Translations under genes and position numbers: made by a program | In this document: positions 2,152 through 63,854 of the stretch, piece after piece | How positions within the stretch are numbered: position 1 is the first letter of the stretch | Layout of the letters: the number at the start of each line of letters is the position of its first letter | IMG/VR virus record: IMGVR_UViG_3300009093_000034 | Span: 30,632-94,631 of that record | Source of the DNA: a virus | Reading direction: 5' to 3' (one strand) | DNA: 64,000 bases | The notes under the pieces: model-generated | Seen by the model: only the letters and a program-made list of their open reading frames with translations | Databases searched by the model: none | Told to the model about the DNA's origin: nothing

Positions 2152-3402
2152 ATGAGTTTCAACGTAAAAGAATTTAAGGAGCGCGCAAAGGCCGCTGCTC
2201 TTAAGGAAGCTGCTGCCGCTGGCAGAGCTCCAGCACAGGCTCCTGCTCCTGCAGCAAAGCCTACTAACGACAAGATCGCTTCTCTCAAAGAAAAGATCCA
2301 GACCAAGCTCGCTGAGAAGAAGGCTGCTCAAGCCGCTGCACCAGCAGGAGATGCTGATCGACAAGCTAGACTCAAGGCTTTCAAGGAAAACTTGATTACT
2401 AAGAGGAGAGCCGCTAAGCTCCAAGAGAATCGTGTTGCAAGAAACACCGCAGCCAAGGAAACCGGACGCAACCTCAAGGAAGAGACTCTTCTTCTTAAGA
2501 AGAGAGTTCAGAACTTGAAGAACTGGTTCAAGGAGAACGAAGGAGTTCTCGGAGCCGGTGTAGATCCTTACGCAGCAGGAACCATCCCAGGTCAAGCTGT
2601 TCCAGGTCTAGAACCTTCCATGGATCCTAACGCTCCAGCTCAACCTCCTGTTCAGCTTCCTCCAGAAGTCGTTGCAGAGATTCAGAGCATCGCAACCGCA
2701 GCAGAGTCTTTGGCTCAGCTCGCCGGTATCGAACCTGCTACCAACCTCGGTGCAGAACCTGGTTCTGATGTTCCAGCAACCACTGCAGATGGAGAAGGCG
2801 GAGCTCTTCCTCAGGCACAACCTGGTGTAAACCCTGTTCTTGAGTCCATCAGGAAGAGAAAGATCGACTCTATCAAGGAGAAGCTTGCTGCTCGTAAGGC
2901 AGAGAGCCTCGCTGAGAAGAAGACCACTGAAGATGACGAGATCGCCGCTCTTCAGGAAAAGGCTGCAAAGCGCAGAGCTGCTCTTCAAGAGCTTCGTGCT
3001 AAGGTCATGGCAGAGTCTTTCAATGATCAAGAAGCAACTGATGACCTCGTTCAGGCTCTTGAGATCAACCCTTCTTACCCTTACCCTACCGCTCCAAAGT
3101 ACACCGACCGCTCTGAAGTTCTTCCAACCGCAGGAACTAAGAGAGGCAACGAGACAGGTTCCTTTACCCCCGGTAAGAACACTCTCAAGCCTGGTCATGT
3201 CTGGAAGCCTGGCACCTTGAAGGTCTCTGGTTCTACCAAGGAACTTCAGATCCACAACCAATCCGCAGACGCTCCTGAGGGAACCGCTCTTCGTGAAGAT
3301 GGTCAGTTGGATCCTGAGAACTGGGCAGATCGCCACGTTCTTAAGATGACTGAGAGCAAGGTTGACTTCCAAGCTCTTCTTAAGAAGGGACTTCTCGGTT
3401 AA
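2152..3402 (+). CDS. Ala/Lys-rich coiled-coil protein, scaffold/core-like (head module)
   Basis: 416 aa of low complexity, Ala/Lys/Glu rich. A strong terminator hairpin lies downstream at 3425-3458. It sits upstream of the capsid gene cluster. Confidence 0.5.
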   Translation: MSFNVKEFKERAKAAALKEAAAAGRAPAQAPAPAAKPTNDKIASLKEKIQTKLAEKKAAQAAAPAGDADRQARLKAFKENLITKRRAAKLQENRVARNTAAKETGRNLKEETLLLKKRVQNLKNWFKENEGVLGAGVDPYAAGTIPGQAVPGLEPSMDPNAPAQPPVQLPPEVVAEIQSIATAAESLAQLAGIEPATNLGAEPGSDVPATTADGEGGALPQAQPGVNPVLESIRKRKIDSIKEKLAARKAESLAEKKTTEDDEIAALQEKAAKRRAALQELRAKVMAESFNDQEATDDLVQALEINPSYPYPTAPKYTDRSEVLPTAGTKRGNETGSFTPGKNTLKPGHVWKPGTLKVSGSTKELQIHNQSADAPEGTALREDGQLDPENWADRHVLKMTESKVDFQALLKKGLLG

Positions 3403-13630: not shown

Positions 13631-14122
13631 ATGAAAAAATTTATCTTCCTCGATATTGACGGAGTTCTCGCAACCACTTGGCACAAACGCCTTGAGGATG
13701 GAGAGCTCTGTTTCAATGAGGCACCAGTCAGAAACTTTAACGATCTTTGTACGGCGGTACCTGATGCAAAGATCATCATCACCTCAACATGGCGTCTTGG
13801 TAGAACTGTTGATGAGTTGAGAGCTATCTTCAAGTTTAGAGGTTTTCTTTATCCTGAGAGGATCATCGATAAAACTCTCAGATTCTTCTACAACTACGAC
13901 CTCAGCGATGGAACCTCTGCATCTAAAGGAGTTCCTAGAGGTGTTGAGATCGCTCATTGGATGGATCATCATCTCATTGATGAGGATGAGATCTCCTACT
14001 TGATTCTTGATGACGACTCAGACATGATGCTCCGTCAAGGCAACCATTTCCTTCGAACCAATAGTTCTAGAGGTTTGACTTCGACAAACGTCAAAAGAGC
14101 GATTAAGATCCTAAATGGCTAG
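13631..14122 (+). CDS. HAD-like hydrolase (phosphatase/nucleotidase family)
   Basis: The N-terminal FIFLDIDGVLAT matches HAD motif I DxDG(T/V). Confidence 0.5.
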   Translation: MKKFIFLDIDGVLATTWHKRLEDGELCFNEAPVRNFNDLCTAVPDAKIIITSTWRLGRTVDELRAIFKFRGFLYPERIIDKTLRFFYNYDLSDGTSASKGVPRGVEIAHWMDHHLIDEDEISYLILDDDSDMMLRQGNHFLRTNSSRGLTSTNVKRAIKILNG

Positions 14123-14309
14123 AACGATCCTCATCACCGGAAATTTTCCTATCTACAAAAACGGTCACAAGACTGGAAAGACTGAGTTCGTTGTCTCTCA
14201 TGGAGTCAACGAAGAGACAGGAAGGAACGTGATTCTTCCCTGTGAACACCCTGCCATGCTCGGTGCAAAGTTCGACTCACAACTTCAAGAGTGGGTGTTG
14301 GAGAATTAA
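14115..14309 (+). CDS. hypothetical protein
   Basis: 64 aa. Confidence 0.35.
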   Translation: MARTILITGNFPIYKNGHKTGKTEFVVSHGVNEETGRNVILPCEHPAMLGAKFDSQLQEWVLEN

Positions 14310-29995: not shown

Positions 29996-30925
29996 ATGAG
30001 TGACGCAGTAGAAAAGAAAGAACCCACGTATGATGAGATCGTCAAAAGCGCTAAAGAGTACTTTGAAGAACTCAAAGCCAAGATCAAGGTCTCTAACGAT
30101 GAGCTTCTTGACCAGATCTCCACAAACTCAGCTCAGCTCTTTGCTCAGCTAGAGAGAACTGGACAGATTCAGGCCATGAAGAAACTTGTGGCTCACATTG
30201 CCTTGATTGAAAAGGAACACGAGATCATCAAGTCTGGGATCAACACCTTTGTGACCACAGATGAGATCAAAGAGTTCATTGACAAGGTTGATGGACGTGT
30301 GGTGAATCTCATTGAGCTGCATAAGTATGAGCGTGAGGTTCCTGAGAACGTGATCCAGAAGTACGAGAAGGTCAAACATCTTTTCACCACCTTCTTCGTT
30401 CTTTTCACTGACTACACAAAAGAACACGCCAAAAAGATCGCCAAGGAAAGAGATCCTATTCTCTTTGGTATGCTTCAAGACGCTGGAACCAAGGCCACGA
30501 CTCAGCGTATGTATGTGATCGGTGACTGGGAAGATGAGTATTGTGATCTTACTTTGGACCGACTTGTGTCCGAAGCCGCTGGTCTCTTTGACAGACCGAT
30601 CGCTATTCAGTTCAGAGATCCTTTGTCCCTTGACGAGATGAGAGCTAAGCTCAAGATGTTGGATGGAGAGTCCAAATCTGATAACTCTAGATGGGCAATG
30701 AACAATGTCGTGGTTACCGGAACCACTGCTTCCATGCAAAACATCTACGTTCCTGTAGTTCCATCAGAACAGGATTTTAAAGATAAGAGCATTCCTGATG
30801 AAGTTCAAGAAGTCGCAAAAGACGTTGTTGAAGAGGAAGAAACTCGAAGTCTTCTCACTAAAGATTCTGAGATTGACACCATGATTCTCCAAGAGACCAA
30901 GAAGCCTTGGTGGAAGTTCTGGTAA
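29996..30925 (+). CDS. hypothetical protein
   Basis: 309 aa. Confidence 0.5.
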   Translation: MSDAVEKKEPTYDEIVKSAKEYFEELKAKIKVSNDELLDQISTNSAQLFAQLERTGQIQAMKKLVAHIALIEKEHEIIKSGINTFVTTDEIKEFIDKVDGRVVNLIELHKYEREVPENVIQKYEKVKHLFTTFFVLFTDYTKEHAKKIAKERDPILFGMLQDAGTKATTQRMYVIGDWEDEYCDLTLDRLVSEAAGLFDRPIAIQFRDPLSLDEMRAKLKMLDGESKSDNSRWAMNNVVVTGTTASMQNIYVPVVPSEQDFKDKSIPDEVQEVAKDVVEEEETRSLLTKDSEIDTMILQETKKPWWKFW

Positions 30926-46142: not shown

Positions 46143-46574
46143 ATGGTTACAAGAAAAATTTGGCGTTTTGAAAACGAAAAAGGTGAAGGTCCTTATAACG
46201 GACACCCTAGTCCAAAATTTCTCTTTAAGTCTACTCATGACGGAGAGTCTAAGAAACATCCTCATCCCAAGTATGACTTTAAGAACTCTAAGATCATTAG
46301 ATTCTTAAACAACATGAACACTAAAGATCACTTTAGATGTGGATTTTCTACAAAGAAACAGGCATTTGAGTGGTTTACTGAACGAGAAAGAAAGATCTTG
46401 AAAAATAATGGCTACAATTTAGTCCGTAAAAATGCAGATAGAATCTTTAAAGGAAACAAACAAGTTATCTATATTCGTGAAGGTCATTTAGAAGAACTTG
46501 TTAAAGTTTTTCGTTTTGATCATTCTGTTCCAAAAACATTAACATCAATATATTCAATCAGGAGCTCAACATGA
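46143..46574 (+). CDS. hypothetical basic protein
   Basis: ATG at 46143 just after the upstream stop, in frame with the longer tracked ORF. Confidence 0.4.
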   Translation: MVTRKIWRFENEKGEGPYNGHPSPKFLFKSTHDGESKKHPHPKYDFKNSKIIRFLNNMNTKDHFRCGFSTKKQAFEWFTERERKILKNNGYNLVRKNADRIFKGNKQVIYIREGHLEELVKVFRFDHSVPKTLTSIYSIRSST

Positions 46575-47122
46575 TGCTACAGACCATTGAAGGAAACCTA
46601 ATCACTCTCGCCCTTGAAGGCAAGTTCGACATGATCGCTCATGGTTGTAACTGCTTCCATACCATGGGAGGAGGGATCGCCAAGTCTATTTCTGAGACTT
46701 TTCCTGAAGCTCTTCAAGCCGACAGGGTCTTTGGAGAAAGAGGAAACGTTTGGAAGCTTGGTCAGGCTTCCAAGGCTACGATCTTTCGTGGAGACACTCA
46801 GTTTGTTGTGGTGAACCTCTATACTCAGTTTGAGCCTGGAGCCAACTTTGAATACTTGGCCTTGATCAACTCTTTAGAGCATCTCAAGAAATACTTGGAT
46901 ATTCATCTCTACGATCGAGTGTCCGATAAACCTTACCGTCTTGGTTTTCCCAAGATCGGAGCTGGTATTGGTGGTGGAGATTGGGACCAGATCTACCAGA
47001 TCATTGACCAGTCTCTTGACGAGAAGTATCGTGAGGAACAGGGAGTCGAAATCACGGTTGTCGAGTTCATTCCTCCTAATCCTCTTCAGGAGATCGTTGT
47101 TCGTTCTCTTCAGAAGAAGTAA
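46571..47122 (+). CDS. macrodomain protein (Poa1-like ADP-ribose processing)
   Basis: MIAHGCNCFHTMGGGIAKSI matches the Poa1/macro signature iaHqcNc.g.MGaGIA. Confidence 0.6.
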   Translation: MMLQTIEGNLITLALEGKFDMIAHGCNCFHTMGGGIAKSISETFPEALQADRVFGERGNVWKLGQASKATIFRGDTQFVVVNLYTQFEPGANFEYLALINSLEHLKKYLDIHLYDRVSDKPYRLGFPKIGAGIGGGDWDQIYQIIDQSLDEKYREEQGVEITVVEFIPPNPLQEIVVRSLQKK

Positions 47123-49542: not shown

Positions 49543-50130
49543 ATGGGAAAGACTGCAGTTTTTACATTTGCAAGAATGAATCCTCCAACTTTAGGTCATG
49601 AACTATTGCTCTCAGAACTTGTCATTCAAGCCTTAGAAAAGAAAGCTGATCCATTTCTTTTCCTTTCCCACACAGAAGACTCTAAGAAAAACCCTATTCC
49701 TTACGGGAACAAAGTTAAATTTGTCAAAGAACTTTTCAAAGATAAGTTCCCTGAACTCCATATCTACTCAGGAGAGAGCTGCAAGAACCCTAGAGAAGCT
49801 CTCTCTTTCCTTTACAATCTTGACGATTACTCTGAGGTGATTGGAGTCTTTGGTAGTGATCGAGTGGATGACATGTACGATCTTATGACCAGAGGAAACG
49901 GAAAAGAAGGTCTTTCATCTGGTTTCTATCTCTTCAACAAACTCTCTGTCACATCAGCCGGAGAACGAGACCCAGAACAAGATGGAGTTGAAGGTGTTTC
50001 TGCCACTAAACTCCGTGAGTACGCTCTAGAAAATGACTTTGAGTCCTTCAAAAAAGGTCTTCCAGAGGCTGACGAAACACTAATTAATAACATCTTTCTA
50101 ACGACCCAACGAGGACTTGAACGTGCCTGA
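49543..50130 (+). CDS. nicotinamide/nicotinate mononucleotide adenylyltransferase-like (HxGH nucleotidyltransferase)
   Basis: FARMNPPTLGHELL is the (T/H)xGH motif. VSATKLRE is the ISSTxIR motif of the NadD/NadM family. Confidence 0.6.
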   Translation: MGKTAVFTFARMNPPTLGHELLLSELVIQALEKKADPFLFLSHTEDSKKNPIPYGNKVKFVKELFKDKFPELHIYSGESCKNPREALSFLYNLDDYSEVIGVFGSDRVDDMYDLMTRGNGKEGLSSGFYLFNKLSVTSAGERDPEQDGVEGVSATKLREYALENDFESFKKGLPEADETLINNIFLTTQRGLERA

Positions 50131-52831: not shown

Positions 52832-54043
52832 ATGCCAAACACAGACAAAAATCACTCCACTCACATTGAAGACTCTGTCCTACAAGGTCCGAAGAAGATC
52901 CAAATGGCGATCCTCTTCTTTGAAGGTCTTCTCAACAACTCGTCTAGTCTAACCAAGAGTCTCAAGATCGACGGAGCTCCCGTTGTCTTGGCAGGTTCCA
53001 ACGCTGTTGGGATCACCAGGCCTTTTGTTGCAGCCAAGTCCTTCTTGAACAACGGTAAGGTCGCGACCAACGAGGATGAGATCCAAGAGCTCTTTGGAGA
53101 TCGTCCTGGTCTTGCTTCCAAGATGAAGAAGCTTCTTGAGCTCCTTCCAGAACTTCAGATCCCTGAAGGAGAGATTTGGAGAGGAGACTTGCTCTTCTCT
53201 AAAGACACTCTTCAAAACGAAGGTGGAAACAACTACTTCCACCCTAACACTCTTGTTTATGCTCCAAACTCCCAATCTGAGATTGATGCTGTCAATCAAG
53301 CAGACATCGGAATCATCTGGCACACCTACTACACAGGGGAGACACTTACGTCTCTCACAGCTCATGCCGATCTCGATGTCTACCGATTGAAACCTTCTAC
53401 ATCTGTTTTTACTCTGAGTCCTCTCTTCAAACAAGAAGAGCTCTCCATTGAGGAAACCTTCTTGATCAAGAGTACATTGGCAACAGTCAAGGAAAGATTC
53501 AGAGGTCTGATGGCTGGTTCTGTTGGAGCTACGTACGCCGAAGTTCTTAAGAACAAGGTGTTTCTTGAACACCTCACAACCTACCTCAATCACTTGATCA
53601 GACAAGGAAAAGGAATCTACCAGTTCTCTCCTACGGATCTTGCTTACAGCTGGATCCCTCAACGATATGAGCAAAAGATCGAAGGTCTTAAGACTGAGAA
53701 GTTCAAGACCAAGTGGAAGAACGAACGAGACTCCTACATCGATGCTGCTAGGTTCATTGAACCTGTCCTTGGTCAGATGATCTCCTTGATGAAAGCCCTT
53801 GTTCACGTCAAGGCTTTGTTCATCCAAAACTTCAACTCTTTGAAAGATCTTCCTTTCATGACCTTCTACAAAAAGAAGATCGATGATCGGGCTGTGTTGG
53901 TCAAGACTGCTCATGAAGGCTTTGTCATCACGGACAAGAAAGGAAACTCTTTTAAGCTTGTTGACCGAGAAGAGTTCACGAAGATCAACTTTGGAGTTGA
54001 TACTGTTCGCGGATGGAAGGAAGAGTCGAAACAAGTCCAATGA
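52832..54043 (+). CDS. putative nucleotidyltransferase/ligase-like protein
   Basis: LKIDGAPV is a KxDG motif-I-like block. The C-terminal HEGFVITDKKGNSFKLVD resembles ligase motifs IV/V. The assignment is tentative because the motif spacing is unusually long. Confidence 0.4.
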   Translation: MPNTDKNHSTHIEDSVLQGPKKIQMAILFFEGLLNNSSSLTKSLKIDGAPVVLAGSNAVGITRPFVAAKSFLNNGKVATNEDEIQELFGDRPGLASKMKKLLELLPELQIPEGEIWRGDLLFSKDTLQNEGGNNYFHPNTLVYAPNSQSEIDAVNQADIGIIWHTYYTGETLTSLTAHADLDVYRLKPSTSVFTLSPLFKQEELSIEETFLIKSTLATVKERFRGLMAGSVGATYAEVLKNKVFLEHLTTYLNHLIRQGKGIYQFSPTDLAYSWIPQRYEQKIEGLKTEKFKTKWKNERDSYIDAARFIEPVLGQMISLMKALVHVKALFIQNFNSLKDLPFMTFYKKKIDDRAVLVKTAHEGFVITDKKGNSFKLVDREEFTKINFGVDTVRGWKEESKQVQ

Positions 54044-54053
54044 CTAATTGGGC

Positions 54054-56240
54054 ATGAGCACTAACAGCCTCCAGTTCTTAGGACCATGGGATCCCACCTC
54101 TGGTGCCTTTCCAATCATTCCCAGCAACGCAACGAGTGCTTACTACTTCGTTGACCATGCTGGTACTTTTAACTCTTTCAACTTTGAAGTAGGAGATTGG
54201 CTTCTCTTCATAGAAGATTCTGTTGGAAACGGAACGTGGTACCAAACAACTGGTGGTGTCATCCAGATCGCTCTAAGTCATAGCGATTTCCATGGACACT
54301 CTTACACTCACGGACCTGTTGATCCTGTAGGCCAAACCATAGGCGGAGTTGTTCTTCCTAACCTACAAGTTGAGATCAAGCAAGCTCTTGGAACCTTGTT
54401 CCAAAATCCTTCTGGAAACCCAGTTGTTTTCACGTATGATCCTGTAGCTAACACAGTTGTTGCTACGGTCAAACACGATGACACTCTAGATATAACAAAT
54501 GCAGGACAACTTAGAGTTGTTTCTTCTGGCGGTTCTTCTCAACCTAGTGAGATCACACCTGACGACATCGTTGGTTTTGATGCAGCTGTCATTGCTGCTG
54601 TCGGTGCCAACCAATTTGCTTCTCCCTCCTCTAAAGCAGTTCAGTTCGCTTTTGACCCAAATACTAGTTCGGTCTCTGCTGATGTCAAGATCGACGGCAG
54701 CTCAATCACCAAGAACAATCTTGGACAACTCCAGTCTAATCCTGTAGGAGCTCAACTTGCTGCTCCTCAACAGATCATAGGCCTTCCAACCTCTGGAAAT
54801 TATGACGATGGAGCCGAGAACTTGGCTAACATGAAGATCGTCGATGCTGTTGCTACATTGAACAGATTGATCAAAGTCATGGAAGCTGCACTAGATGTTG
54901 CTGAAGCTGCTCCTTCTTTGAACCTTGGGGACTACACCTTAACCTTTGCAGGAACCACAGTTACCGCTAAAGCAGTTTCTGATGGAACTGACATTCAAGT
55001 TTACACGATAGCTCCTACTGTTCCTCAAGTTGGTCCATTCAAGAGAGTCAATGGAAACCTCAATGTTTTCTTAGACAGTACTCTTGTAGGAACTCTTGTT
55101 ATTGACACAGCTGACTTAACCGGTCAAGTCAATGGGGACTTGACCGTTGTCCATGACACTGACCTTTACGAAGACATTCCTTTCTTCTTCGGAAGATACA
55201 AGGTCTTGGATGCTTTGGTCACCATCCTAGATTCCTTAACTGAAGGGACTCACGAGATCATCCTTCAGAGTACCGGAGATAACCAGTCTGTTTCGAACGT
55301 CTTCAATTTTGCTGATACAAACGTTACAGGTTCCATTGATGAAGAGAGTTCAACTATCATCACCTTCGGTGCTGGTGAACATCTCTCCGGAGTTCCAGTT
55401 CTTTCTACTCCAAACGTTTTGGTCGGGCCTCTTTTCGTAGATAACGTAGCTAAGCAGTTCTATCAAGGAACAGACATTGTTGAGCTGGCAAGCCCATCAC
55501 TTCACTTTGACGTAGCTACTCCTACTTCTGAACCTACAGAGGATAACTTCACCGTTCTTGAGACCAACTCTTTGAGTGGAACTCTTCCTGGTTCCTTCTT
55601 CAGTTCTGTCTCTTTGGACTTCACGATCTTTACAATAGGACACAAGAATGTAGGAACTCAGAATGTCACCATTCCTAAGAGATGGGACGCTTCTATTGTT
55701 CTTGAAACTTCAGGAAATCCAATAGCAAGAATTGATTCAGGAAGCGGAGATTTTGATTTCACTGGTTCAGACTATGATTCTACAGTAAGTCTTGTGGACA
55801 ACACAGAACTTCAGATTGAGAACAGAAAGATCAAGTTCCCTACTCAAGACTATACCACTTTGAGTGGACCAGATTACTCTGGTATCGTCCAAGGTTCTGC
55901 TTTTAGATATTGTACCTTGGTAGAAACTTCAGGGGTCACTAGTGCTACAGGTTTTGACTTGGATCTCAGAGGACTCACCACCATCAATGGATCTAATCCT
56001 CTCAAGGTTCTCATCAAGGTTGGTTCCAACCCAGTTGTAGATGCTACACTTCCGTACAACTCAGGAAACACTTGGCAAGATGGAGTTCCTGGTTGGGACC
56101 AAACTGCCACAGGACTTCCTGCTAATGTTAGAAGAATCACCTTCGGTTCTCACACCTTGACCGGTCCTCTTTACATCAAGGTCGCATACAAGGGAGCAGA
56201 TTACGAGTTAACTGTTCCTACTTCTTGGATCTTTATCTAA
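54054..56240 (+). CDS. structural protein, fibre/baseplate-like
   Basis: 729 aa from the ATG at 54054; the tracked TTG at 54048 would add 2 aa. It is Thr/Ser/Gly/Val-rich and beta-rich, with no enzymatic motifs. Confidence 0.5.
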   Translation: MSTNSLQFLGPWDPTSGAFPIIPSNATSAYYFVDHAGTFNSFNFEVGDWLLFIEDSVGNGTWYQTTGGVIQIALSHSDFHGHSYTHGPVDPVGQTIGGVVLPNLQVEIKQALGTLFQNPSGNPVVFTYDPVANTVVATVKHDDTLDITNAGQLRVVSSGGSSQPSEITPDDIVGFDAAVIAAVGANQFASPSSKAVQFAFDPNTSSVSADVKIDGSSITKNNLGQLQSNPVGAQLAAPQQIIGLPTSGNYDDGAENLANMKIVDAVATLNRLIKVMEAALDVAEAAPSLNLGDYTLTFAGTTVTAKAVSDGTDIQVYTIAPTVPQVGPFKRVNGNLNVFLDSTLVGTLVIDTADLTGQVNGDLTVVHDTDLYEDIPFFFGRYKVLDALVTILDSLTEGTHEIILQSTGDNQSVSNVFNFADTNVTGSIDEESSTIITFGAGEHLSGVPVLSTPNVLVGPLFVDNVAKQFYQGTDIVELASPSLHFDVATPTSEPTEDNFTVLETNSLSGTLPGSFFSSVSLDFTIFTIGHKNVGTQNVTIPKRWDASIVLETSGNPIARIDSGSGDFDFTGSDYDSTVSLVDNTELQIENRKIKFPTQDYTTLSGPDYSGIVQGSAFRYCTLVETSGVTSATGFDLDLRGLTTINGSNPLKVLIKVGSNPVVDATLPYNSGNTWQDGVPGWDQTATGLPANVRRITFGSHTLTGPLYIKVAYKGADYELTVPTSWIFI

Positions 56241-56257
56241 CAATTGTAAAATCTTTT

Positions 56258-56272
56258 GAGATATTGTAGATA
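56258..56272 (+). promoter_or_regulatory. conserved promoter-like motif TGAGATATTGTAGAT (copy 8), part of palindrome TGAGATAT-TGTAG-ATATCTCA
   Basis: 16 nt upstream of the ATG at 56288, with an AGGAGAG RBS. Confidence 0.55.
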
Positions 56273-56287
56273 TCTCAGGAGAGTATC

Positions 56288-56488
56288 ATGATTCAGACCC
56301 TAGCTGGCATCTGGCTGTTTGGTTGGATGCTTGCAGTTGCTACGGTTCTTCTAGACTACCCTAAGAAGGGAGCTCTGAAAGGCTGGCAGGAAACAGTCTC
56401 CATCCTTCTCTACTGTCTGGTTTTGATCCTTCTTTGGCCTCGTCGTGTTTACTGGCTTGGCAAGCAGATCTTGAAAGGTAACCCCTAA
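56288..56488 (+). CDS. small GC-rich membrane protein
   Basis: 66 aa with two TM helices. Confidence 0.4.
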   Translation: MIQTLAGIWLFGWMLAVATVLLDYPKKGALKGWQETVSILLYCLVLILLWPRRVYWLGKQILKGNP

Positions 56489-56489
56489 A

Positions 56490-57587
56490 ATGCAGAACCT
56501 TCTCGTCCTCAAGTTCATTCAGGAACATCCCAACGATTGGGAGCAGATCCTCTCTGCTGAGCCTTACCACATGTCAGTCAAGCACTACGATGGTAAGGAA
56601 CTCATCAACCAGAACTTGGTGATGCTCTCCTACAACCAGATCTTCTCCGACTTCCACAACCCGATCGTTCGTGAGTGCCGAGGTATCATCATCGACAAGG
56701 TCACCATGAAGGCTGTCTGTGTTCCGTTCTTCAAGTTCGGAAACCAGGGAGAGAGCTATGCTGACAAGATCGATTGGTCCACAGCTCATGTTCTCCAGAA
56801 GATCGATGGTTCTCTGATCAAGCTCTATTTCTACAATGGAACCTGGCGAATCGCCACCAATGGAACCATCAACGCTCTCGAGTGTGATCTTCCTTCGGAC
56901 CTTGGTCCTTCGAAGACCTTCGGTGAGTTGTTCTTGAACAACATCCCTGTGGACAGCTTCCTCGACATCGCCGACAAAGACTACACTTACATGTTTGAGA
57001 TCTGCTCTCCTTGGAACCGGGTGGTAACTCCCTGGCAGACCACCGAGATCTTCTTCTTGGGCATGCGTCACAACGAGACCCTTCAGGAAACTCTTCCTGA
57101 TGACCGGTTCATGCCGATCCTTCCTCCGAAGATGTATCCTCTGACCTCTTTGGCTGAGGTCGAAGCTGCTTCCAAAGAGCTTCCCTTCCAGGATGAAGGT
57201 TATGTCGTCGTTGACGCTGACTTCAAGCGTGTCAAGATCAAGGGTCCGGCTTACGTCAAGATCCACCATCTCCGTTCTGAAGGGCCCTTCACCATGAAGC
57301 GTGCCTTCGAGTTGGTTCAGGCCAATGAAGTTGGTGAGTTTCTTTCGTACTATCCCGAGTATACTAACGTTGTAGAAGGTGTTCGTTCCAAATTGGACGT
57401 CATCAAGGAAGCTCTGAAGGAACAGGAAACTCTTGTTTTCTCCCAGAACTTCCTTAGCCGAAAGGACTACGCTCTCTTTGTCAAGGACTTCCAGTACAAG
57501 TCTTACTTCTTCTCGAAGTTGGATGGCAAGGTGTCTGGCATCGACGAGTACGTTTCTAAACTCAAGTTCGATCAGGTTCAACTGTGA
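56490..57587 (+). CDS. RNA ligase 1 (T4 RnlA-like)
   Basis: VLQKIDGSLIKLYF is nucleotidyltransferase motif I KxDG(S/T). Its 365-aa length is comparable to T4 Rnl1. Confidence 0.7.
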   Translation: MQNLLVLKFIQEHPNDWEQILSAEPYHMSVKHYDGKELINQNLVMLSYNQIFSDFHNPIVRECRGIIIDKVTMKAVCVPFFKFGNQGESYADKIDWSTAHVLQKIDGSLIKLYFYNGTWRIATNGTINALECDLPSDLGPSKTFGELFLNNIPVDSFLDIADKDYTYMFEICSPWNRVVTPWQTTEIFFLGMRHNETLQETLPDDRFMPILPPKMYPLTSLAEVEAASKELPFQDEGYVVVDADFKRVKIKGPAYVKIHHLRSEGPFTMKRAFELVQANEVGEFLSYYPEYTNVVEGVRSKLDVIKEALKEQETLVFSQNFLSRKDYALFVKDFQYKSYFFSKLDGKVSGIDEYVSKLKFDQVQL

Positions 57588-57817
57588 AAAAAGAAAAGCC
57601 TTTATATCGAATCCTAGAAAAACACAGTAAGTTCTACCCTCAATGGCGAGGGTGGTTTTTCTGGAATTATTTTGAAGCAGATCCTGACACCGGAGAAGTT
57701 AAAGTTTGGAAAGAAACTTTAACTGCTGCCAAGCAGTACATCAAGTTCCACATTCAAGCTGTAAAAGAAGTTGAAGAAATGTGGAACCCTAAGATCGTGA
57801 TCCATAGTTTTGAATAG
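57584..57817 (+). CDS. hypothetical protein
   Basis: 77 aa. Confidence 0.4.
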   Translation: MKKEKPLYRILEKHSKFYPQWRGWFFWNYFEADPDTGEVKVWKETLTAAKQYIKFHIQAVKEVEEMWNPKIVIHSFE

Positions 57818-57834
57818 GAGTACATCATAAGAGT

Positions 57835-58347
57835 ATGAACAAAATTTTCACAAATGCAAACGTCTCAGCAATGGCCTCGGGCTTATCCTTAGTGGAAAAT
57901 CCTGAGGCTATTTCTATTGTGGTCCAAAAGGATCCGTCATCTTTTCATCGATCTTCTGAGTTCTTGGAGTTTACCAAGAAAGCCTTTCAGATGATGGTTG
58001 ACTCTGAAGTCCCAGTCCTTTCCTCTGTTGAGGTTAGTGAGTTTCCGGTTGAGGGAAATAATGGAGACTGGTTTCTCTGGTGGCACAAGACCCGCCAGCC
58101 TATCGTCTGTCTTAGTCCTACCTTCTACATCACCAAGAGAGTCTCAAGGTCCAACAAGCACATTCGTTGGGATCGCGCTGCCCACAATGCCTTCAGTGGC
58201 ATCAATGGTTACGCTCCTAGCATCAGAGCTGTTTGGTACGAGTTCGATGTTGATGGAAAGTTGGTCAAGTCTTTCAAGGATCTTGTCAAGGATGAAGCAG
58301 CAGACTTCCAAAGAGGAACTCTTCTTCTTAGAGGAAAGCTAAAGTGA
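57835..58347 (+). CDS. hypothetical protein
   Basis: 170 aa. Confidence 0.45.
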   Translation: MNKIFTNANVSAMASGLSLVENPEAISIVVQKDPSSFHRSSEFLEFTKKAFQMMVDSEVPVLSSVEVSEFPVEGNNGDWFLWWHKTRQPIVCLSPTFYITKRVSRSNKHIRWDRAAHNAFSGINGYAPSIRAVWYEFDVDGKLVKSFKDLVKDEAADFQRGTLLLRGKLK

Positions 58348-58553
58348 TCACCACAATCTCTTTCCTTTGGCTGATGGGATTCCTTGGTTGTCTAGTTCAT
58401 TTCACTTTGGAAAAGATCAAGTTCGTTAGGTTCGACGAGTTTGGATGGGAGTGGTTTCACTCTGCTCACTGGCTAGTTTGTTCTGTTGTCTTGTTCTTTA
58501 TCTGGCCAGCTTATGGCTTGATCCCAAAGTTTCGTCTCATCAGTAAAATGTAA
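58344..58553 (+). CDS. small TM protein
   Basis: 69 aa with two hydrophobic helices. Confidence 0.4.
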   Translation: MITTISFLWLMGFLGCLVHFTLEKIKFVRFDEFGWEWFHSAHWLVCSVVLFFIWPAYGLIPKFRLISKM

Positions 58554-58919
58554 ATAAAGGGAACTCTGTTTCAGCGTAACAACCGAAGTTAGCGCCGACA
58601 AAATGAGATGATGCGAAAGGCCTTGGGGAGCACAAGGTACCAACGAGTAGCTACCATCTCACGTACTGTCTCTCATGCCCCTGAGAGAACTTCCGTTTTA
58701 AGAAGCGACCACGAATTGCTTCCCAGGTTGCGGAAGAACAAATAGTTCCCGAGCAAAGTAGTGTAACGGTTTCGCACGACCAGTGTCTACTGGTTAGTTC
58801 TAGGATCATCCCCTAGACTTTGCTATTGCTCTTGAATTCCACGTAAAGGAGGTTAACCATTCACATGAATTCCAAGGACAACTTTCACACTTCACACATC
58901 ATAAGGTCTTCTCACGAAA

Positions 58920-59594
58920 ATGAAAACTATCGAAAGCAGTCCGCTCAACGACCGAGACTTGATCTACGAGATCAAGAACAACCAGGAAACATCTAGTAAA
59001 AACAGGTGGATCCTTTTCAAACGCTATGAGAATCTGATACATAAGCACTGGCATGGACTTAGAAATACTCTAGACAACTCTAGGTATGTCCAAGACGTCA
59101 AAGACGACTTTTACAGTGATGCCTTCATCACCTTCTGTAGCGCGTTGGATGCTATCAATCTCGACAAGGTTCGAGACAACAAGTGGAAGTTCCTAGGGTA
59201 CTTTGGCTGGTACCTTTCAAATCAAAGGAACTCTTCAGCCAGACGAATCATCAAGAAGCACCAGAAAGAAACTGCGATTGAGATTGCAGTTGAGAACCCA
59301 AGATCTTCTAGACCAAAGAACATCTATATCACAGATAGTTTCGATCATCTGTCTTCTCTTTCTACAGAGGAAGAAGTGATCAAGAACGATGAGTCACAGA
59401 GATTTTGGACGGCTTTGAACAGGTGCAAGACCAAGATTTGGTCTTCAGTAGAATCTGAGATCTTCGATCGAAGAGAGAAAGGAGAATCGATCGGAACCAT
59501 CGGACAGTCGATGAAGTTGTCAACTCCCATCATTAGAAAAACGTTATCTTCCATGCTATCAACTCTTAAGGTGGAAGCAGAGAAATCATTCTAA
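58920..59594 (+). CDS. sigma-70 family RNA polymerase sigma factor (phage-encoded)
   Basis: DDFYSDAFITF...KFLGYFGWYLSNQRN resembles sigma region 2 (FSTYATWWIRQ). The C-terminal ESIGTIGQSMKLSTPIIRKTLSS is a region-4-like HTH. Confidence 0.55.
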   Translation: MKTIESSPLNDRDLIYEIKNNQETSSKNRWILFKRYENLIHKHWHGLRNTLDNSRYVQDVKDDFYSDAFITFCSALDAINLDKVRDNKWKFLGYFGWYLSNQRNSSARRIIKKHQKETAIEIAVENPRSSRPKNIYITDSFDHLSSLSTEEEVIKNDESQRFWTALNRCKTKIWSSVESEIFDRREKGESIGTIGQSMKLSTPIIRKTLSSMLSTLKVEAEKSF

Positions 59595-59638
59595 CCAGAA
59601 ACGATCTTGCGTTAAAGCAAGGGATCTGAGTCCCAAAG

Positions 59639-59670
59639 AAAAAGCCCTCTTTCGAGGGCTTTTTTATTTT
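59639..59670. terminator. bidirectional rho-independent terminator
   Basis: AGCCCTC-TTTC-GAGGGCT is flanked by A-run and T-run. It serves the + sigma gene and the - RHH gene. Confidence 0.75.
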
Positions 59671-59890: not shown

Positions 59891-61972
59891 TTATGCAAAA
59901 ACCAACTCATCTTCAGGCTTGAGAGAGTAAGCGGGTTTGACTCCCTTGGTGGTCTTCACAGGATCAAAGGTGTTGAACGTGTAGGTTTTTCCTGTGGTTT
60001 CATCTAACACCTCGTAAAGAACTGGTAGGTCCAACTCTTTTCCTAGAGCGAAGACGTTGAAGGCAGTGAGACTGTGAAGGTCTGCTCCCATCTTTGGGTC
60101 TGTGTAAACTCCATACAAGGTTCTATCTCTACCAGCATTGTTCAAGCTTGTGTCGATAGCTGCAATTCTTGCTTGAAGAGAAGCGTAGTCAACCGTGGCC
60201 AACAGATAGTCTTCTGTGTTTGGAGACGTGATACATCTCTTAACCAGTTCAGCCAAGTCTCCGTGAGCAGGGATGTTTTGAAGGTTTGGGTTACTGCATC
60301 GGCCTCGGCCAGACTCAGTCAACATGACACCGTAGTTAGGATGCATTCTGAAACTGTTGTCTTCAGGATGGTACTTGATGTACTGCTCCCAACCCTTTTC
60401 ACTATCTTCTGAGCTTGAGATAAACGCCTTGAGGATTGTTTTCAACGATCTGAGCTCTTGAAGTTCTTCAGCTCCAGCTCTTCCTTTTTGCTTCCAACGT
60501 TCTAGACAAGCATCGTCCGTGATGTACAGACCAACCTTGGTTCTACCGAGCTCTTCCCAACCCATGGACTCAAAAAGTCGACCTAGAGCATGAGTACTGT
60601 TGAAGTCAAAGTCTCTAGTGATGTTCCAAAGTCCAGCCAACTTGGCCTCTAGTCTTTCAACCTCACCAAGAATTCTTGCTCTTGAACTTTGAAGCTCCGT
60701 CTTATTGACGTAGACACCTCGGTACTCTATCTCAGCGAACACTCGGTAAGCTGGCATCATGATCTCGTTGTAGTAACGTTCCATAGACCATGAAGGATCT
60801 TTCTCGTTTGGATATCTTTCATCCAACTCTCTGAGTTGGGACAATTGAGCAAAGTACACTCTGAATGCCAGGATGGCGTCTTTTGTAGCATAAGGAAAAC
60901 AAATGTGCTTTGGGATCAACGAGTAGTCTTCAACTCCAGTCTTCTCTTTGTAAAGGTCCAACTCTCTGTCATACCCTCCGAATGGGGTGTAGTAGTAAGT
61001 GGAAGGTTTAAGACCATTGTATCTCTGTTCATTGATGACGTGGCCGAGCTCGACAGTATCCCCGTAAACACAAGCAAAGGGAACTCCCTCTTGCCAAAGC
61101 CACTTAACGTCGAACTTGAGGTTAGCACCGATCTGTCTCTTCTTCTTGAGAAGTCTGTTCAGTGTTGGTTTATCAACTAGATGCCAAGGAACATAGTAAC
61201 CAGTCTCTCCGTCAAATGAGAACGTAAAACAAACAATTTTGTTTCCAAAGAAACTAAGACTGTTGGTTTCCAAGTCCCAAGAGAGGAAGGGATATCGATC
61301 ATCGTCTTCATATCTTTCACAGATCTCAATGAACTCTTCCGTAGTTTGAATATCAACTAGCTTCAGTTCAGGAATATCAGGAGGAGAGAGATCATAGTCT
61401 TGAGCCCAACTGAACTGATACTCAGCGAACCTTGTCTTGTACGTATCAACAGGAAACTCAGGATTTGATGGGACATTGTTCTTCCTCATGACTGGAACAA
61501 AGATCTCAAGGAAGGAGTCTAGAGGAAAGACCCACGTGTTAGCATCTGGAGACCAAAAGTAAGTCTTATTGAAAATGATGTCTCTAAAACAATCGATGGT
61601 GATGTCTGCACTTTTGTTGATAGCATAAAGAGCAGAACCTACTGCAAAGATAGCACGAGCACCTTCTGAGTACTTTTTCCAATTGGTTTGATTTGACCTA
61701 TAAAACTTAGCCAAACCTCCAGTGATCTCCTCTTTTTTAACGTCTACGTTCAAACTATACAAAATCTTGAAGCTTCTAATTCCATTCTTGAGAACAAACT
61801 TCTCGATCCTCTTAAGTTTCACAGGGGAGTAAAGTTCATCCAATAGAATGACATAAAAAGGTTCGTCTGGTTGAATATGATCAAGTGCTAATGCATCATG
61901 AACCATGTCAGCAGCAAGAACTTTCTTTGTTGCAGATGTGTTAAGTCCACCAAAACTAAAACTAAAACTCAT
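59891..61972 (-). CDS. family A DNA polymerase, N-terminal portion (3'-5' exonuclease + palm up to motif A); C-terminal motifs B/C not encoded here
   Basis: FLSWDLETNSL is Exo I. CSNPNLQNIPA is the Pol I-type NPNLQNIP block. LLATVDYASLQARIAA is motif A (DYSQIELR). The ORF ends before motif B (RxxxKxxxFGxxYG) and motif C (HDE). Confidence 0.7.
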   Translation of the reverse strand: MSFSFSFGGLNTSATKKVLAADMVHDALALDHIQPDEPFYVILLDELYSPVKLKRIEKFVLKNGIRSFKILYSLNVDVKKEEITGGLAKFYRSNQTNWKKYSEGARAIFAVGSALYAINKSADITIDCFRDIIFNKTYFWSPDANTWVFPLDSFLEIFVPVMRKNNVPSNPEFPVDTYKTRFAEYQFSWAQDYDLSPPDIPELKLVDIQTTEEFIEICERYEDDDRYPFLSWDLETNSLSFFGNKIVCFTFSFDGETGYYVPWHLVDKPTLNRLLKKKRQIGANLKFDVKWLWQEGVPFACVYGDTVELGHVINEQRYNGLKPSTYYYTPFGGYDRELDLYKEKTGVEDYSLIPKHICFPYATKDAILAFRVYFAQLSQLRELDERYPNEKDPSWSMERYYNEIMMPAYRVFAEIEYRGVYVNKTELQSSRARILGEVERLEAKLAGLWNITRDFDFNSTHALGRLFESMGWEELGRTKVGLYITDDACLERWKQKGRAGAEELQELRSLKTILKAFISSSEDSEKGWEQYIKYHPEDNSFRMHPNYGVMLTESGRGRCSNPNLQNIPAHGDLAELVKRCITSPNTEDYLLATVDYASLQARIAAIDTSLNNAGRDRTLYGVYTDPKMGADLHSLTAFNVFALGKELDLPVLYEVLDETTGKTYTFNTFDPVKTTKGVKPAYSLKPEDELVFA

Positions 61973-62210
61973 TATTTTCCTTCTTTATCAAAAGTAATAT
62001 ATAGACTAATGTGCAAATTTACTCACCAATGCAAATAAGAAAAAGTTAATATGGATTCCTAGATTGTTCATTTTGAACAGTGTGTAAAATGAGCAGCATA
62101 TATAAGAATCTAACATAATAAGAATCTTAGTACTTAGGGTCAAACCCGGATCAACAAGAGGTTGATTGGAGTTCATGAAGTTTTTACTGGACCATGTTAT
62201 ACTTGTTTGT

Positions 62211-63854
62211 ATGGCAAAAGAACTCCGATACTCAAACGATTCCAGACAACGCATGTTCAAGGGAGTTGACAAGCTTGCAAAAGCTGTCATGACGACTCTT
62301 GGCCCAAGAGGACGAACAGTCATCATTCAAAAGACCTTCGGGTCTCCTTTGATCACAAAGGACGGTGTGACCGTCGCTAGAGAAATAGAACTTCCAGATC
62401 CTTATGAGAACCTAGGTGCTCAGTTGATCAAGGAAGCTGCGATCAGAACTAATGATCTCGCAGGAGACGGTACCACAACGGCAACAACGTTGGCCTACTC
62501 CTTGATCAATCAAGGTCTTAAGAAGATCTCCGAGGGTTTTGACCCGATTGAGATCAAGAAAGGAATGGAAGAAGCTACTCTTAGAGCTCAGAAACACCTT
62601 CAGTCTTTTAAGATGGATGTTCAGGATACCAAAGACATCAGGCATGTTGCAACCATCTCAGCCAACAACGATGCAGAACTTGGTGGCCTTCTGGCTGAAG
62701 CCTTTGATCACATTGGAAATGACGGAATTGTGACAGTAGAGGATTCTCCAAATCGACAGACCTTTGTCTCATATTCCGAAGGACTCGAGTATGATGAAGG
62801 ATACGCAACTCCGTTCATTATCAACGACCCTAGAGGAATTGTTACTTATCAGAACCCAAGGTTCTTGCTCATTGATAGTGAGCTGAACAGCTTTCACATC
62901 ATAGTCAAGATACTCGAGAAGTGGACGAGAGACGGTTGTAAGTATCCTTTCGTCATTGTTGCTACTGGGTTTTCTAACGAAGTTCTGACGACTATCGGTC
63001 AGAATGTTCAAGGTGGAAAAAGACCTATAGCTTGTTTCAAAGCTCCAGGTTTTGGAGAGAAGAAACAGGTTTACTTGAAGGACTTGGCTGCTGCTTTGGG
63101 AGCATCCATCTTTACACAACAAGAGGTTGGTCTTCAACTAGCTCAGTTCCAAGAAGAACACCTTGGAAAAGCTGGTTCCTTGAAGCTTACCTCAAACAGA
63201 ACAACCATCGTTGATCCTAAGGGAGACGGAGAGGCATTTGAAAAACATGTTCAAGAACTTAGAGAGATGGAAGCAGAGTCTACTTCAGGCTTTGAAAAAG
63301 AACTTCTCCAAGAGCGACTCGCTAAACTCGCTGGTGGAGTTGCTGTGGTTCACGTTGGTGCTTCAACCGAAGTTGAACTCAAGGAAAAGAAACACAGGGT
63401 TGAAGACGCTCTGAATGCAACTAGAGCTGCTCTAGAAGAAGGTATTGTCATCGGTGGAGGAAACACACTCCTTAGAGTGGCAAAGCTTCTTTCTCAAAAC
63501 ATCAAGAACCTTGGATCACCAGGTTTTATGGCTGGTTACAACGCAGTGGTAAGAGGTCTTAGAGAACCATTCTATCAGATCGCTTATAACGCTGGAAAGT
63601 CTCTAGAAGATATCGTCGAAGCCGTTCCAATCATTACCAAGACTGGAAGCACCAACATGGGTTGGAACGCTTTGACTGATACCTTTGGAGACCTATATGA
63701 AGAGGGAGTTATCGACCCCATCAAGGTCACTCGATATGCCTTAGAACACGCAGCTTCTGTTGCTGCTATCTTCATGGTGGTTGAGTGTGCTATCATCGAT
63801 CAAGGAAACATCCGTGTCGTACCTAATGGCTCGGAGTTAATGGGAGAATTCTAA
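62211..63854 (+). CDS. groEL: GroEL/Cpn60 chaperonin homolog
   Basis: From the internal ATG at 62211: MAKELRYSNDSRQRMFKGVDKLAKAVMTTLGPRGRTVII...ITKDGVTVAREIEL...NDLAGDGTTTATTLA matches the GroEL N-terminus and the ATP-binding DGTTTAT block. Confidence 0.85.
   Translation: MAKELRYSNDSRQRMFKGVDKLAKAVMTTLGPRGRTVIIQKTFGSPLITKDGVTVAREIELPDPYENLGAQLIKEAAIRTNDLAGDGTTTATTLAYSLINQGLKKISEGFDPIEIKKGMEEATLRAQKHLQSFKMDVQDTKDIRHVATISANNDAELGGLLAEAFDHIGNDGIVTVEDSPNRQTFVSYSEGLEYDEGYATPFIINDPRGIVTYQNPRFLLIDSELNSFHIIVKILEKWTRDGCKYPFVIVATGFSNEVLTTIGQNVQGGKRPIACFKAPGFGEKKQVYLKDLAAALGASIFTQQEVGLQLAQFQEEHLGKAGSLKLTSNRTTIVDPKGDGEAFEKHVQELREMEAESTSGFEKELLQERLAKLAGGVAVVHVGASTEVELKEKKHRVEDALNATRAALEEGIVIGGGNTLLRVAKLLSQNIKNLGSPGFMAGYNAVVRGLREPFYQIAYNAGKSLEDIVEAVPIITKTGSTNMGWNALTDTFGDLYEEGVIDPIKVTRYALEHAASVAAIFMVVECAIIDQGNIRVVPNGSELMGEF

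Follow-up and report, generated by a model that had tools for sequence, protein, structure and literature searches.

We found that a conserved structured RNA is encoded at positions 58559-58825 on the plus (+) strand of a 64,000-nucleotide (nt) stretch of viral DNA, positions 30,632 to 94,631 of IMG/VR record IMGVR_UViG_3300009093_000034 (here, the window). The RNA is ~270 nt long and lies just upstream of a gene for a sigma-like protein. It has two tightly joined modules: a 5' domain, which is a five-helix fold of no known family, and a 3' cloverleaf that, judging by its sequence features, descends from a phage tRNA-His gene. A sequence-only reading of the gap in front of the sigma-like gene had suggested a structured RNA, possibly a riboswitch, an attenuator or a degraded intron. 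Our results confirm its observations in part and support its interpretation in part. The core of it, a structured RNA, was right; these specific readings were not supported, and the tRNA-His-derived cloverleaf, which makes up the 3' third of the RNA, had been overlooked.

Conservation and covariation of the RNA

The 224-amino-acid (aa) sigma-like protein and a region identical to the window are present on two contigs, of 305,853 base pairs (bp; ENA ERZ27252312, k141_4393686) and 27 kilobases (kb; JGI). The source is therefore a jumbo phage known from metagenomes only. Searches anchored on the sigma-like protein, its 170-aa neighbour and PolA, followed by contig look-ups, gave a single syntenic relative (L001/L002; below, L001). 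Its proteins are 71% (sigma-like), 79% (170-aa neighbour) and 72% (PolA) identical to those of the window, and its gap at the equivalent position is 363 nt. Among the contigs retrieved with the three anchors, only L001/L002 carry the RNA. The family so far has two members, both in related soil jumbo phages.

The non-coding gap is real and functional. As stated earlier from the sequence, there is no open reading frame (ORF) of at least 60 aa on either strand between a 69-aa ORF (58344-58553) and the sigma-like gene (58920-59594). Short ORFs within the gap are not conserved in L001, and comparison of the window with L001 gave no small conserved ORF inside the RNA. The GC content had been described as well above that of the neighbouring genes; the excess is small. 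GC is 0.459 in the gap and 0.491 in the RNA proper, and the window mean is 0.436. The 170-aa gene is at 0.456 and a nearby RNA ligase gene at 0.494.

The gap is approximately 77% identical overall between the window and L001 (23% nucleotide divergence), and unpaired positions of the RNA are 84% identical. At four-fold third positions of conserved codons, identity is 36% for the sigma-like gene and polA and 59% for the 170-aa gene, so that synonymous changes in the flanking genes have almost reached saturation. The 69-aa ORF directly upstream has a positional ortholog of 66 aa in L001 with 28% identity and diverges much faster than the RNA. These sequence comparisons indicate that the RNA is under selection, conserved far beyond synonymous sites and the adjacent small ORF. 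An "intergenic gap" of a jumbo phage can thus hold the most conserved sequence of its neighbourhood.

Separate minimum free energy (MFE) folds of the window and L001 sequences gave the same architecture. For the trimmed RNA (58557-58826, + strand) the z-score was -3.25, and the MFE structure, the centroid and the consensus structure were the same. The equivalent RNA of L001 had a z-score of -2.55. We compared 68 homologous base pairs between the two sequences. Of these, 47 were unchanged, 17 had changed on both sides with pairing retained (compensatory), 4 had changed on one side through a G.U pair, and none was broken; all 21 varying pairs are still paired. When the 3' partners were shifted by 1-3 nt as a control, 23-32 of the 68 pairs were canonical. 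The P3-P5 core can be aligned unambiguously. All of its 35 pairs are kept, with 8 double changes, and in the corresponding slid controls 37-51% of positions were paired, with 0-1 double changes. The proposal that the gap is a structured RNA and not spacer DNA is borne out by this strong covariation with the sole available homolog.

We assigned the RNA to the + strand because the six G.U pairs found in either sequence would turn into A.C mismatches if the minus strand were the transcript; there are no mismatches on the + strand. The one-sided changes (A-U to G-U, G.U to G-C, and U.G to C-G) are neutral solely on the + strand, and ARAGORN and the Rfam tRNA model matched only this strand.

The 5' domain (Table 1) is a multi-helix junction with four arms, closed by P1. 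It matched no Rfam family, at the gathering score in a scan of the whole window or at E <= 10 in a scan of the region. The mutually complementary segments pointed out in the sequence-only reading are real as strands of P1 (GGGAACT 58559-65 with AGTTCCC 58744-50), P4 (TCTCTCA 58669-75 with TGAGAGA 58682-88) and P5 (CTTCCGT 58690-96 with GCGGAAG 58730-36). However, CAGAGTTCCC, as written there, is absent, and the P1 arm is 7 bp rather than 10. In P1a, GGGAACU/AGUUCCC of the window corresponds to GAGAA/UUCUC in L001, with one compensatory change from G-C to A-U; the register of P1b differs between the two phages. A U.G pair of P2 is C-G in L001, a change that keeps pairing on the + strand only.

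The P3 arm keeps 15 of 15 pairs (2 compensatory changes and one change from A-U to G-U) around a conserved, asymmetric 5 x 11 internal loop, GAAAG / A(C/U)CAACGAGUA. Within it, GAA 58615-17 faces AGUA 58646-49 beside a covarying C-G/U-A pair, which may fit a loop-E/sarcin-ricin-type motif. The 5' strand of P3 is AAATGAGATGATGCG. It had been read as a degenerate copy of a promoter motif, but it is not a repeated sequence: there were 4 matches with up to 3 mismatches, against 2.5 expected. The k-mers enriched in intergenic gaps were A/T-rich words only. In P4, 4 of the 7 pairs changed on both sides with pairing intact. The P5 arm, with an internal loop UUUAA / CCAGGUU, keeps 13 of 13 homologous pairs (2 compensatory and 2 one-sided via G.U).

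Loops and junctions of the 5' domain are strongly conserved between the phages; the hairpin loops of P2 and P5 are invariant. A 4-bp tertiary pairing of AACC in the P2 loop (58581-84) with GGUU (58726-29) is possible; both strands are invariant in both phages. A long-range helix proposed by RNAalifold between the 3' trailer and P2 (58571-79/58826-35, -4.8 kcal/mol) was rejected as chance, since 36% of shuffled sequences gave one as good. Several known RNAs were set aside: bacterial Y RNA (there is no Ro-type stem, nor a TROVE gene among the neighbours scanned), 6S RNA (the architecture does not fit), and phi29-type pRNA and dCas12f-sigma guide RNAs (no Cas12f-like ORF is adjacent).

Table 1. 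Positions of the RNA, its parts and the flanking features in the window
Feature	Position	Strand	Remarks
69-aa hydrophobic ORF	58344-58553	+	probably a membrane protein; stop 5 nt before P1
5' domain	58559-58750	+	192 nt; from MFE folds of window and L001
P1, 5' strand	58559-58570	+	P1a 58559-65/58744-50; P1b 58567-70/58737-40
P2 hairpin	58574-58595	+	loop AACCGAA (58581-87), invariant in both phages
P3 arm	58604-58661	+	P3 58604-10/58655-61; P3mid 58613-14/58650-51; P3a 58620-25/58633-38
P4 hairpin	58669-58688	+	7 bp; loop UGCCCC
P5 arm	58690-58736	+	P5 58690-96/58730-36; P5a 58702-08/58716-22; loop CCACGAA (58709-15), invariant
Linker	58751	+	1 nt between P1 and acceptor stem in both phages; G in window, A in L001
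tRNA-like cloverleaf	58752-58825	+	ARAGORN and MFE folds
Acceptor stem	58752-59/58817-24	+	8 bp, followed by A58825
D arm	58761-77	+	part of cloverleaf
"Anticodon" stem	58778-84/58789-95	+	7 bp; loop GUCU
Variable region	58796-99	+	
T arm	58800-16	+	loop AUCAUCC
AUUG	58825-58828	+	directly after acceptor stem; identical in window and L001; CCA not encoded
Box AAAGGAGGTTAA	58844-58855	+	12-nt island of identity, window and L001; contains Shine-Dalgarno AGGAGG, 58847-52
Open frame after Shine-Dalgarno	58859-58996	+	AUU 58859 (AUC in L001), 6 nt past AGGAGG; ATG 58865; stop 58994-96
Sigma-70-family-like gene	58920-59594	+	224 aa; last gene of the + strand unit
Terminator	59638-59665	+	12-bp stem, then TTTTTT; closes the unit; only strong + strand terminator

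A non-decoding derivative of tRNA-His

ARAGORN reported "tRNA-???" with a 2-nt anticodon in the window and at the homologous site of L001. The cloverleaf is complete, with four arms and the elbow nucleotides (GG in the D loop and UC in the T loop), and the L001 copy scored 38.5 bits on the Rfam tRNA model RF00005 (gathering score 29). The anticodon loop is 6 nt in both phages, UGUCUA in the window and UUUCGA in L001, and can close to a tetraloop on the 7-bp stem. The GUG anticodon is absent from both copies. Because a 7-nt anticodon loop, GUG and an encoded CCA end have been lost, the cloverleaf is, on its sequence, unable to decode. Neither ARAGORN nor Rfam reported a tmRNA in the window.

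The descent of this module could be traced from its arms. A -1:73 pair extends the acceptor stem to the 8 bp typical of tRNA-His (AGCAAAGU/ACUUUGCU in the window and GGUGAAGU/ACUUCACC in L001). The pair is A-1:U73 in the window and G-1:C73 in L001, so that only L001 has the identity pair. A search of IMG/VR with the pattern GTGTAANGGT...GGATCATNCC, which combines the D arm and the T loop, matched five real tRNA genes, and all five were tRNA-His(GTG). Two of them (L038 and L041) are the same in sequence, leaving four distinct genes; the other eight matching loci had no tRNA at the site. The matched arrays hold approximately 50 other tRNAs, and the pattern picked only tRNA-His among approximately 55. 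Our covariance model matched two of these genes (E = 4e-7 and 8e-6). Aligned with them, the cloverleaf has in common the D arm GUGUAA.GGU..GCAC, the T loop AUCAU.C and the -1:73 pair. The best global alignment scores were also to tRNA-His, a comparison that is partly circular as the loci had been chosen by the pattern. On these sequence grounds we conclude that the cloverleaf descends from a phage tRNA-His gene.

The five genes with the signature of the cloverleaf lie in unrelated arrays, at L031 5944-6018, L035 3658-3733, L037 361-434, L038 3022-3095 and L041 1598-1671. They have an unusual T loop, AUCAU(U/C)C, with A54 and not U/T, and the D arm GUGUAA.GGU.

Covariation within the cloverleaf was unevenly distributed. 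Compensatory changes affected 5 of 7 anticodon-stem pairs and 3 of 8 acceptor pairs, and the D and T stems were unchanged. The anticodon hairpin has therefore been kept as a structure and the elbow as a sequence. The 6-nt loop is common to both phages, and its shortening therefore predates their split. The cloverleaf is demonstrably a domesticated tRNA, maintained by selection although it does not decode.

We looked for further members of the family. Searches of GenBank phages with blastn and tblastn, using the region, the cloverleaf and the sigma-like protein, gave zero matches. IMG/VR, JGI metagenomes and GTDB genomes were scanned for patterns taken from conserved loops of the 5' domain or from the cloverleaf, and the matches were filtered with a covariance model (CM R1). 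No more copies of the 5' domain were found in these scans: CM R1 rejected all 5'-domain pattern matches, and the cloverleaf part matched only genuine tRNA-His genes. Remoter relatives of the phage have sigma orthologs of 41-47% identity and PolA of 52-59% identity. Where the upstream sequence is assembled, the sigma gene follows a divergent gene of 404-410 aa, with an upstream region of just ~110-190 nt. Neither nhmmer nor the covariance model found the RNA in ~100 kb sampled from these relatives, and the relatives at 52-59% PolA identity have no RNA in the sequence available around polA and sigma. The contig of the nearest outgroup (L021, PolA 59%) stops before the syntenic position and is uninformative on this point.

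Possible functions and known counterparts

We tentatively favor, at a little under even confidence, the notion that the element gives rise to a processed, stable phage RNA in which the tRNA mimic serves host RNase P and RNase Z as their point of entry. The RNA would be transcribed within the + strand unit whose terminator follows the sigma-like gene, and host tRNA-processing enzymes would recognize the mimic. RNase P would cut between 58751 and 58752 and free the 5' domain as a stable RNA of ~190 nt, its 3' end buried in P1, comparable to what the mascRNA element does for MALAT1. A cut by RNase Z or RNase E near 58825 would free the sigma mRNA, with AGGAGG and its conserved box in the leader. 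Once released, the 5' domain would likely be the functional moiety, probably as an RNA that binds protein or RNA.

We suggest this processing because the mimic keeps the features used by RNase P and RNase Z and abuts P1 through 1 nt. RNase P gauges the acceptor/T-arm stack from the elbow and cleaves any RNA that presents it, and there are known substrates of this kind that are not tRNAs; RNase Z acts on precursors without CCA (PMC4919913). The layout is of the mascRNA type: a coaxial T-arm/acceptor stack with an elbow is located directly 3' of the candidate released RNA, and both phages keep the 1-nt linker and the closure by P1.

Several points weigh against this interpretation. There are just two distinct sequences, so the covariation, albeit in many pairs, represents one divergence event. 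The window cloverleaf has no Rfam tRNA score at all, even at E <= 10. The acceptor/T stack is 13 bp with no RCCA, although this is normal for tRNA-His precursors without an encoded CCA. An ornate domain of 190 nt with invariant loops exceeds the needs of a processing or stability signal. Finally, the T and D arms are invariant in sequence while the other stems covary, which could equally point to a specific partner other than RNase P.

A bolder extension, which we consider doubtful, is that the element is the founding member of a new, "tRNA-tethered" class of phage RNA. The compact five-helix RNA would then have an activity of its own, as a ribozyme, as a sponge for proteins or as an assembly made of RNA alone. 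Its covalent partner, the domesticated tRNA-His, would bring to it the host's RNase P and CCA-adding enzyme and, in L001, possibly the histidyl-tRNA synthetase HisRS. If this were true, the element would be a small, tractable analogue of the unexplained association of GOLLD and ROOL RNAs with tRNAs. 

The element itself is compact and cleanly delimited (~270 nt), with just one nucleotide between the tRNA part and a new folded domain. It offers a small construct on which one could test directly whether RNase P and RNase Z process it, whether CCA is added and histidine attached, and how the 5' domain is folded.

The element belongs to no Rfam family; it is a structured RNA of a phage with a tRNA-like module attached, a combination so far uncatalogued. 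It resembles several known systems in part. Phage tRNA-His (RF00005) has the same cloverleaf, D arm (GUGUAA.GGU..GCAC), T loop (AUCAU(U/C/A)C) and 8-bp acceptor stem with a -1:73 pair. In contrast, the element has a 6-nt loop and neither GUG nor CCA, its window copy has A-1:U73 and fails the model, and 1 nt fuses its cloverleaf to a structured domain of 192 nt. GOLLD and ROOL, from phages and prophages, are also structured RNAs; they are large, have no assigned function and are often located by tRNA islands, and tRNAs are sometimes covalently embedded in GOLLD (PMC12286853). Neither Rfam model matches the element, which is far smaller (~190 nt and not ~580-800 nt), has a non-decoding mimic as its tRNA module, and has no tRNA island around it within the window.

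In MALAT1 and MEN-beta (with mascRNA) and in Arabidopsis GUT15, a tRNA-like element lies directly 3' of a structured RNA and the RNase P cut makes the mature 3' end of that RNA (PMC4919913). The element has the same order of modules, but those systems are eukaryotic and nuclear, their 3' end is guarded by a triple helix where P1 would serve here, and for the phage RNA the processing is inferred. T4 species 1 and 2 (rnaC and rnaD) are stable phage RNAs of unknown function with tRNA-like T-arm/acceptor features, annotated beside tRNA genes; the rnaC fold has a T-arm-like hairpin, GGGUUCGAAUCCC. Unlike the element, they are single modules of 119-139 nt inside a tRNA cluster. Homology to rnaC and rnaD was rejected, with a covariance-model score of ~7 bits that is within noise. 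TLS-His elements of plant RNA viruses also mimic tRNA-His (PMC8127992). They are pseudoknotted acceptor mimics at the 3' ends of +ssRNA genomes, whereas the present element is internal, is a true cloverleaf in a DNA-phage transcript, and does not conserve histidine identity. Phage RNAs beside or containing tRNAs (GOLLD, ROOL, and T4 species 1 and 2) have been seen repeatedly without an assigned function, and this element is a compact case.

Our results might also indicate that the element is a cis-regulatory leader of the sigma-like gene, with the 5' domain as an aptamer or protein site, the tRNA mimic as part of a sensing platform, and mRNA stability or translation starting at the conserved AGGAGG as the output. 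We consider this unlikely, though worth weighing. In both phages the element is directly upstream of the sigma-like gene and in the same orientation. Past 58828 conservation collapses except for the box AAAGGAGGTTAA, which begins 19 nt past the end of the cloverleaf (58825), with AGGAGG itself at 22 nt. The AGGAGG ribosome-binding site noted earlier is thus present and its box is conserved in L001, and in both phages an open frame extends from the box past the start of the sigma gene.

The sequence-only reading had described this frame as a 44-codon upstream ORF at 58866-58997. It does overlap the sigma start, in the +1 frame, but it has 43 codons and spans 58865-58996, one base off. The ATG and the peptide differ in L001, where the frame is open from the same position, has its sole ATG 35 nt past AGGAGG and stops 46 nt inside the sigma-like gene. 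What the two phages share is just the AGGAGG box and the open frame. From the sequence, translation of the frame could be coupled to the sigma start, which is weakly preceded by a Shine-Dalgarno (SD) sequence.

Other observations speak against a leader, and in particular against the riboswitch or attenuator suggested before. The Rfam scans, at the gathering score and at E <= 10, gave no known riboswitch or leader model. We found no terminator/antiterminator alternative, merely weak T tails after P4 and the T arm, and no conserved helix that sequesters the SD, which is outside the conserved fold. The sole long-range helix from RNAalifold is the one between the 3' trailer and P2 that was no better than shuffles. 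In addition, the RNA is absent from the sigma orthologs at 41-47% identity, which are preceded by a short upstream region and by another gene. The suggestion of a degraded intron also found no support, as there was no Rfam intron match and the flanking ORFs are complete, unrelated genes rather than halves of one gene.

An alternative of similarly low probability is a trans-acting decoy or sponge, in which the tRNA-His mimic, possibly still with the 5' domain, titrates or redirects a host factor that binds tRNA. This could be HisRS, RNase P, the CCA-adding enzyme or a modification enzyme, or else a defence nuclease directed at tRNAs. The elbow (D and T arms) is invariant in sequence and the acceptor and anticodon stems covary freely, as might be expected of such a decoy. 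The G-1:C73 pair, which is the main identity element for HisRS, is retained in L001; the A-1:U73 pair of the window means that histidine identity is not conserved. Without an anticodon loop, anticodon nucleases would have no target, and no partner protein is evident among the neighbours. A gene for an Rnl1-type RNA ligase 1 kb upstream is consistent with a decoy, but the ligase also matches a tail-fibre-attachment family and its adjacency may be incidental. Ornate phage RNAs linked to tRNAs are a known and unexplained theme (PMC12286853), which would also accommodate a decoy.

It is very improbable that the RNA comes from the minus strand, be it as an antisense or as a convergent transcript. 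The full 366-nt gap does fold better on that strand (z = -3.67, compared to -1.04 on the + strand), and there are weak promoter-like hexamers at 58926-58898 and 58789-58760. The better minus-strand fold of the full gap is misleading: the trimmed RNA folds on the + strand into the consensus structure (z = -3.25), and the G.U pairs, the one-sided changes and the tRNA models described above all fit the + strand only.

We regard as equally remote the possibility that the cloverleaf is a working, unusual tRNA, used for doublet decoding or frameshifting through its 6-nt anticodon loop or as a histidine donor. The complete cloverleaf with its conserved elbow nucleotides, and the L001 score above the Rfam tRNA threshold, would be in line with this. 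The loop, however, is not conserved (UGUCUA vs UUUCGA) and can close to a tetraloop, CCA is not encoded, and the -1:73 identity pair differs between the phages.

A functionless, decaying tRNA-His pseudogene next to neutral spacer, which would explain the shortened anticodon loop, the loss of the anticodon, CCA and (in the window) G-1:C73, and the failure of the window copy on the Rfam tRNA model, is the least probable of all, given that 21 of 21 varying pairs remain paired (17 through double changes), that unpaired positions are 84% identical compared to 36-59% at synonymous sites, that the stem has been maintained since the common 6-nt loop arose before the split, and that 23% nucleotide divergence argues against recent recombinants sharing the segment.

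Genomic setting

All genes from 54048 to 59594 are on the + strand, a consensus scan found no sigma-70-type promoter-like site on the + strand between 57500 and 60200 (phage-specific promoters are possible), and the sole strong + strand terminator is that at 59638-65. The RNA is therefore most simply part of that + strand unit, with the small ORF before it and the last gene after it. A terminator-like hairpin (57634-57655, +; 8-bp stem, then TTTTT) is located inside the start of a 77-aa ORF (57584-57817). It may be due to chance or may be an internal attenuation point of the RNA-bearing unit.

The product of the last gene matched a PHROG sigma family (1740, E = 3.7e-5) and had no Pfam match. 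Its AlphaFold2 (AF2) model had a pLDDT of 73 and a pTM of 0.42, and the top 50 Foldseek matches in the PDB were nearly all sigma factors, with modest scores (E = 6e-4 to 0.09, TM ~0.3). On these matches, the label "sigma-like" is reasonable but not proven.

The Rnl1-type RNA ligase gene (56490-57587, +) matched Pfam RNA_lig_T4_1 and the PHROG annotation "RNA ligase and tail fiber protein attachment catalyst". Opposite it is a mirror ORF of 335 aa (56574-57581, -). Similar pairs are present at 25850-27061/25844-27070 and 52832-54043/52949-54040, and the mirror ORFs are probably an artefact of codon composition rather than genes. Upstream in the same + block are genes for a macro-domain protein (46571-47122; PHROG "phosphatase"), a cytidylyltransferase-like protein (49543-50130) and a DUF6267 protein (52832-54043), which may relate to NAD/ADP-ribose or RNA-end chemistry. 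The second-largest stretch of the window without an ORF of at least 70 aa (13834-14241, 408 nt) had no Rfam match at the gathering score.

Beyond the terminator, the PolA gene (59891-61972, -) adjoins a gene for a GroEL-type chaperonin (62166-63854, +; PHROG 5725, E = 9e-141). Other genes were found next to polA in related phages. Just downstream of polA, the nearest outgroup L021 has a 178-aa ORF (2512-3048) with a faint NUMOD3 match, likely a free-standing homing endonuclease. In two related jumbo phages (L022 10030-10437 and L023 12119-13004), one or two response-regulator receiver-domain proteins are encoded directly downstream of polA.

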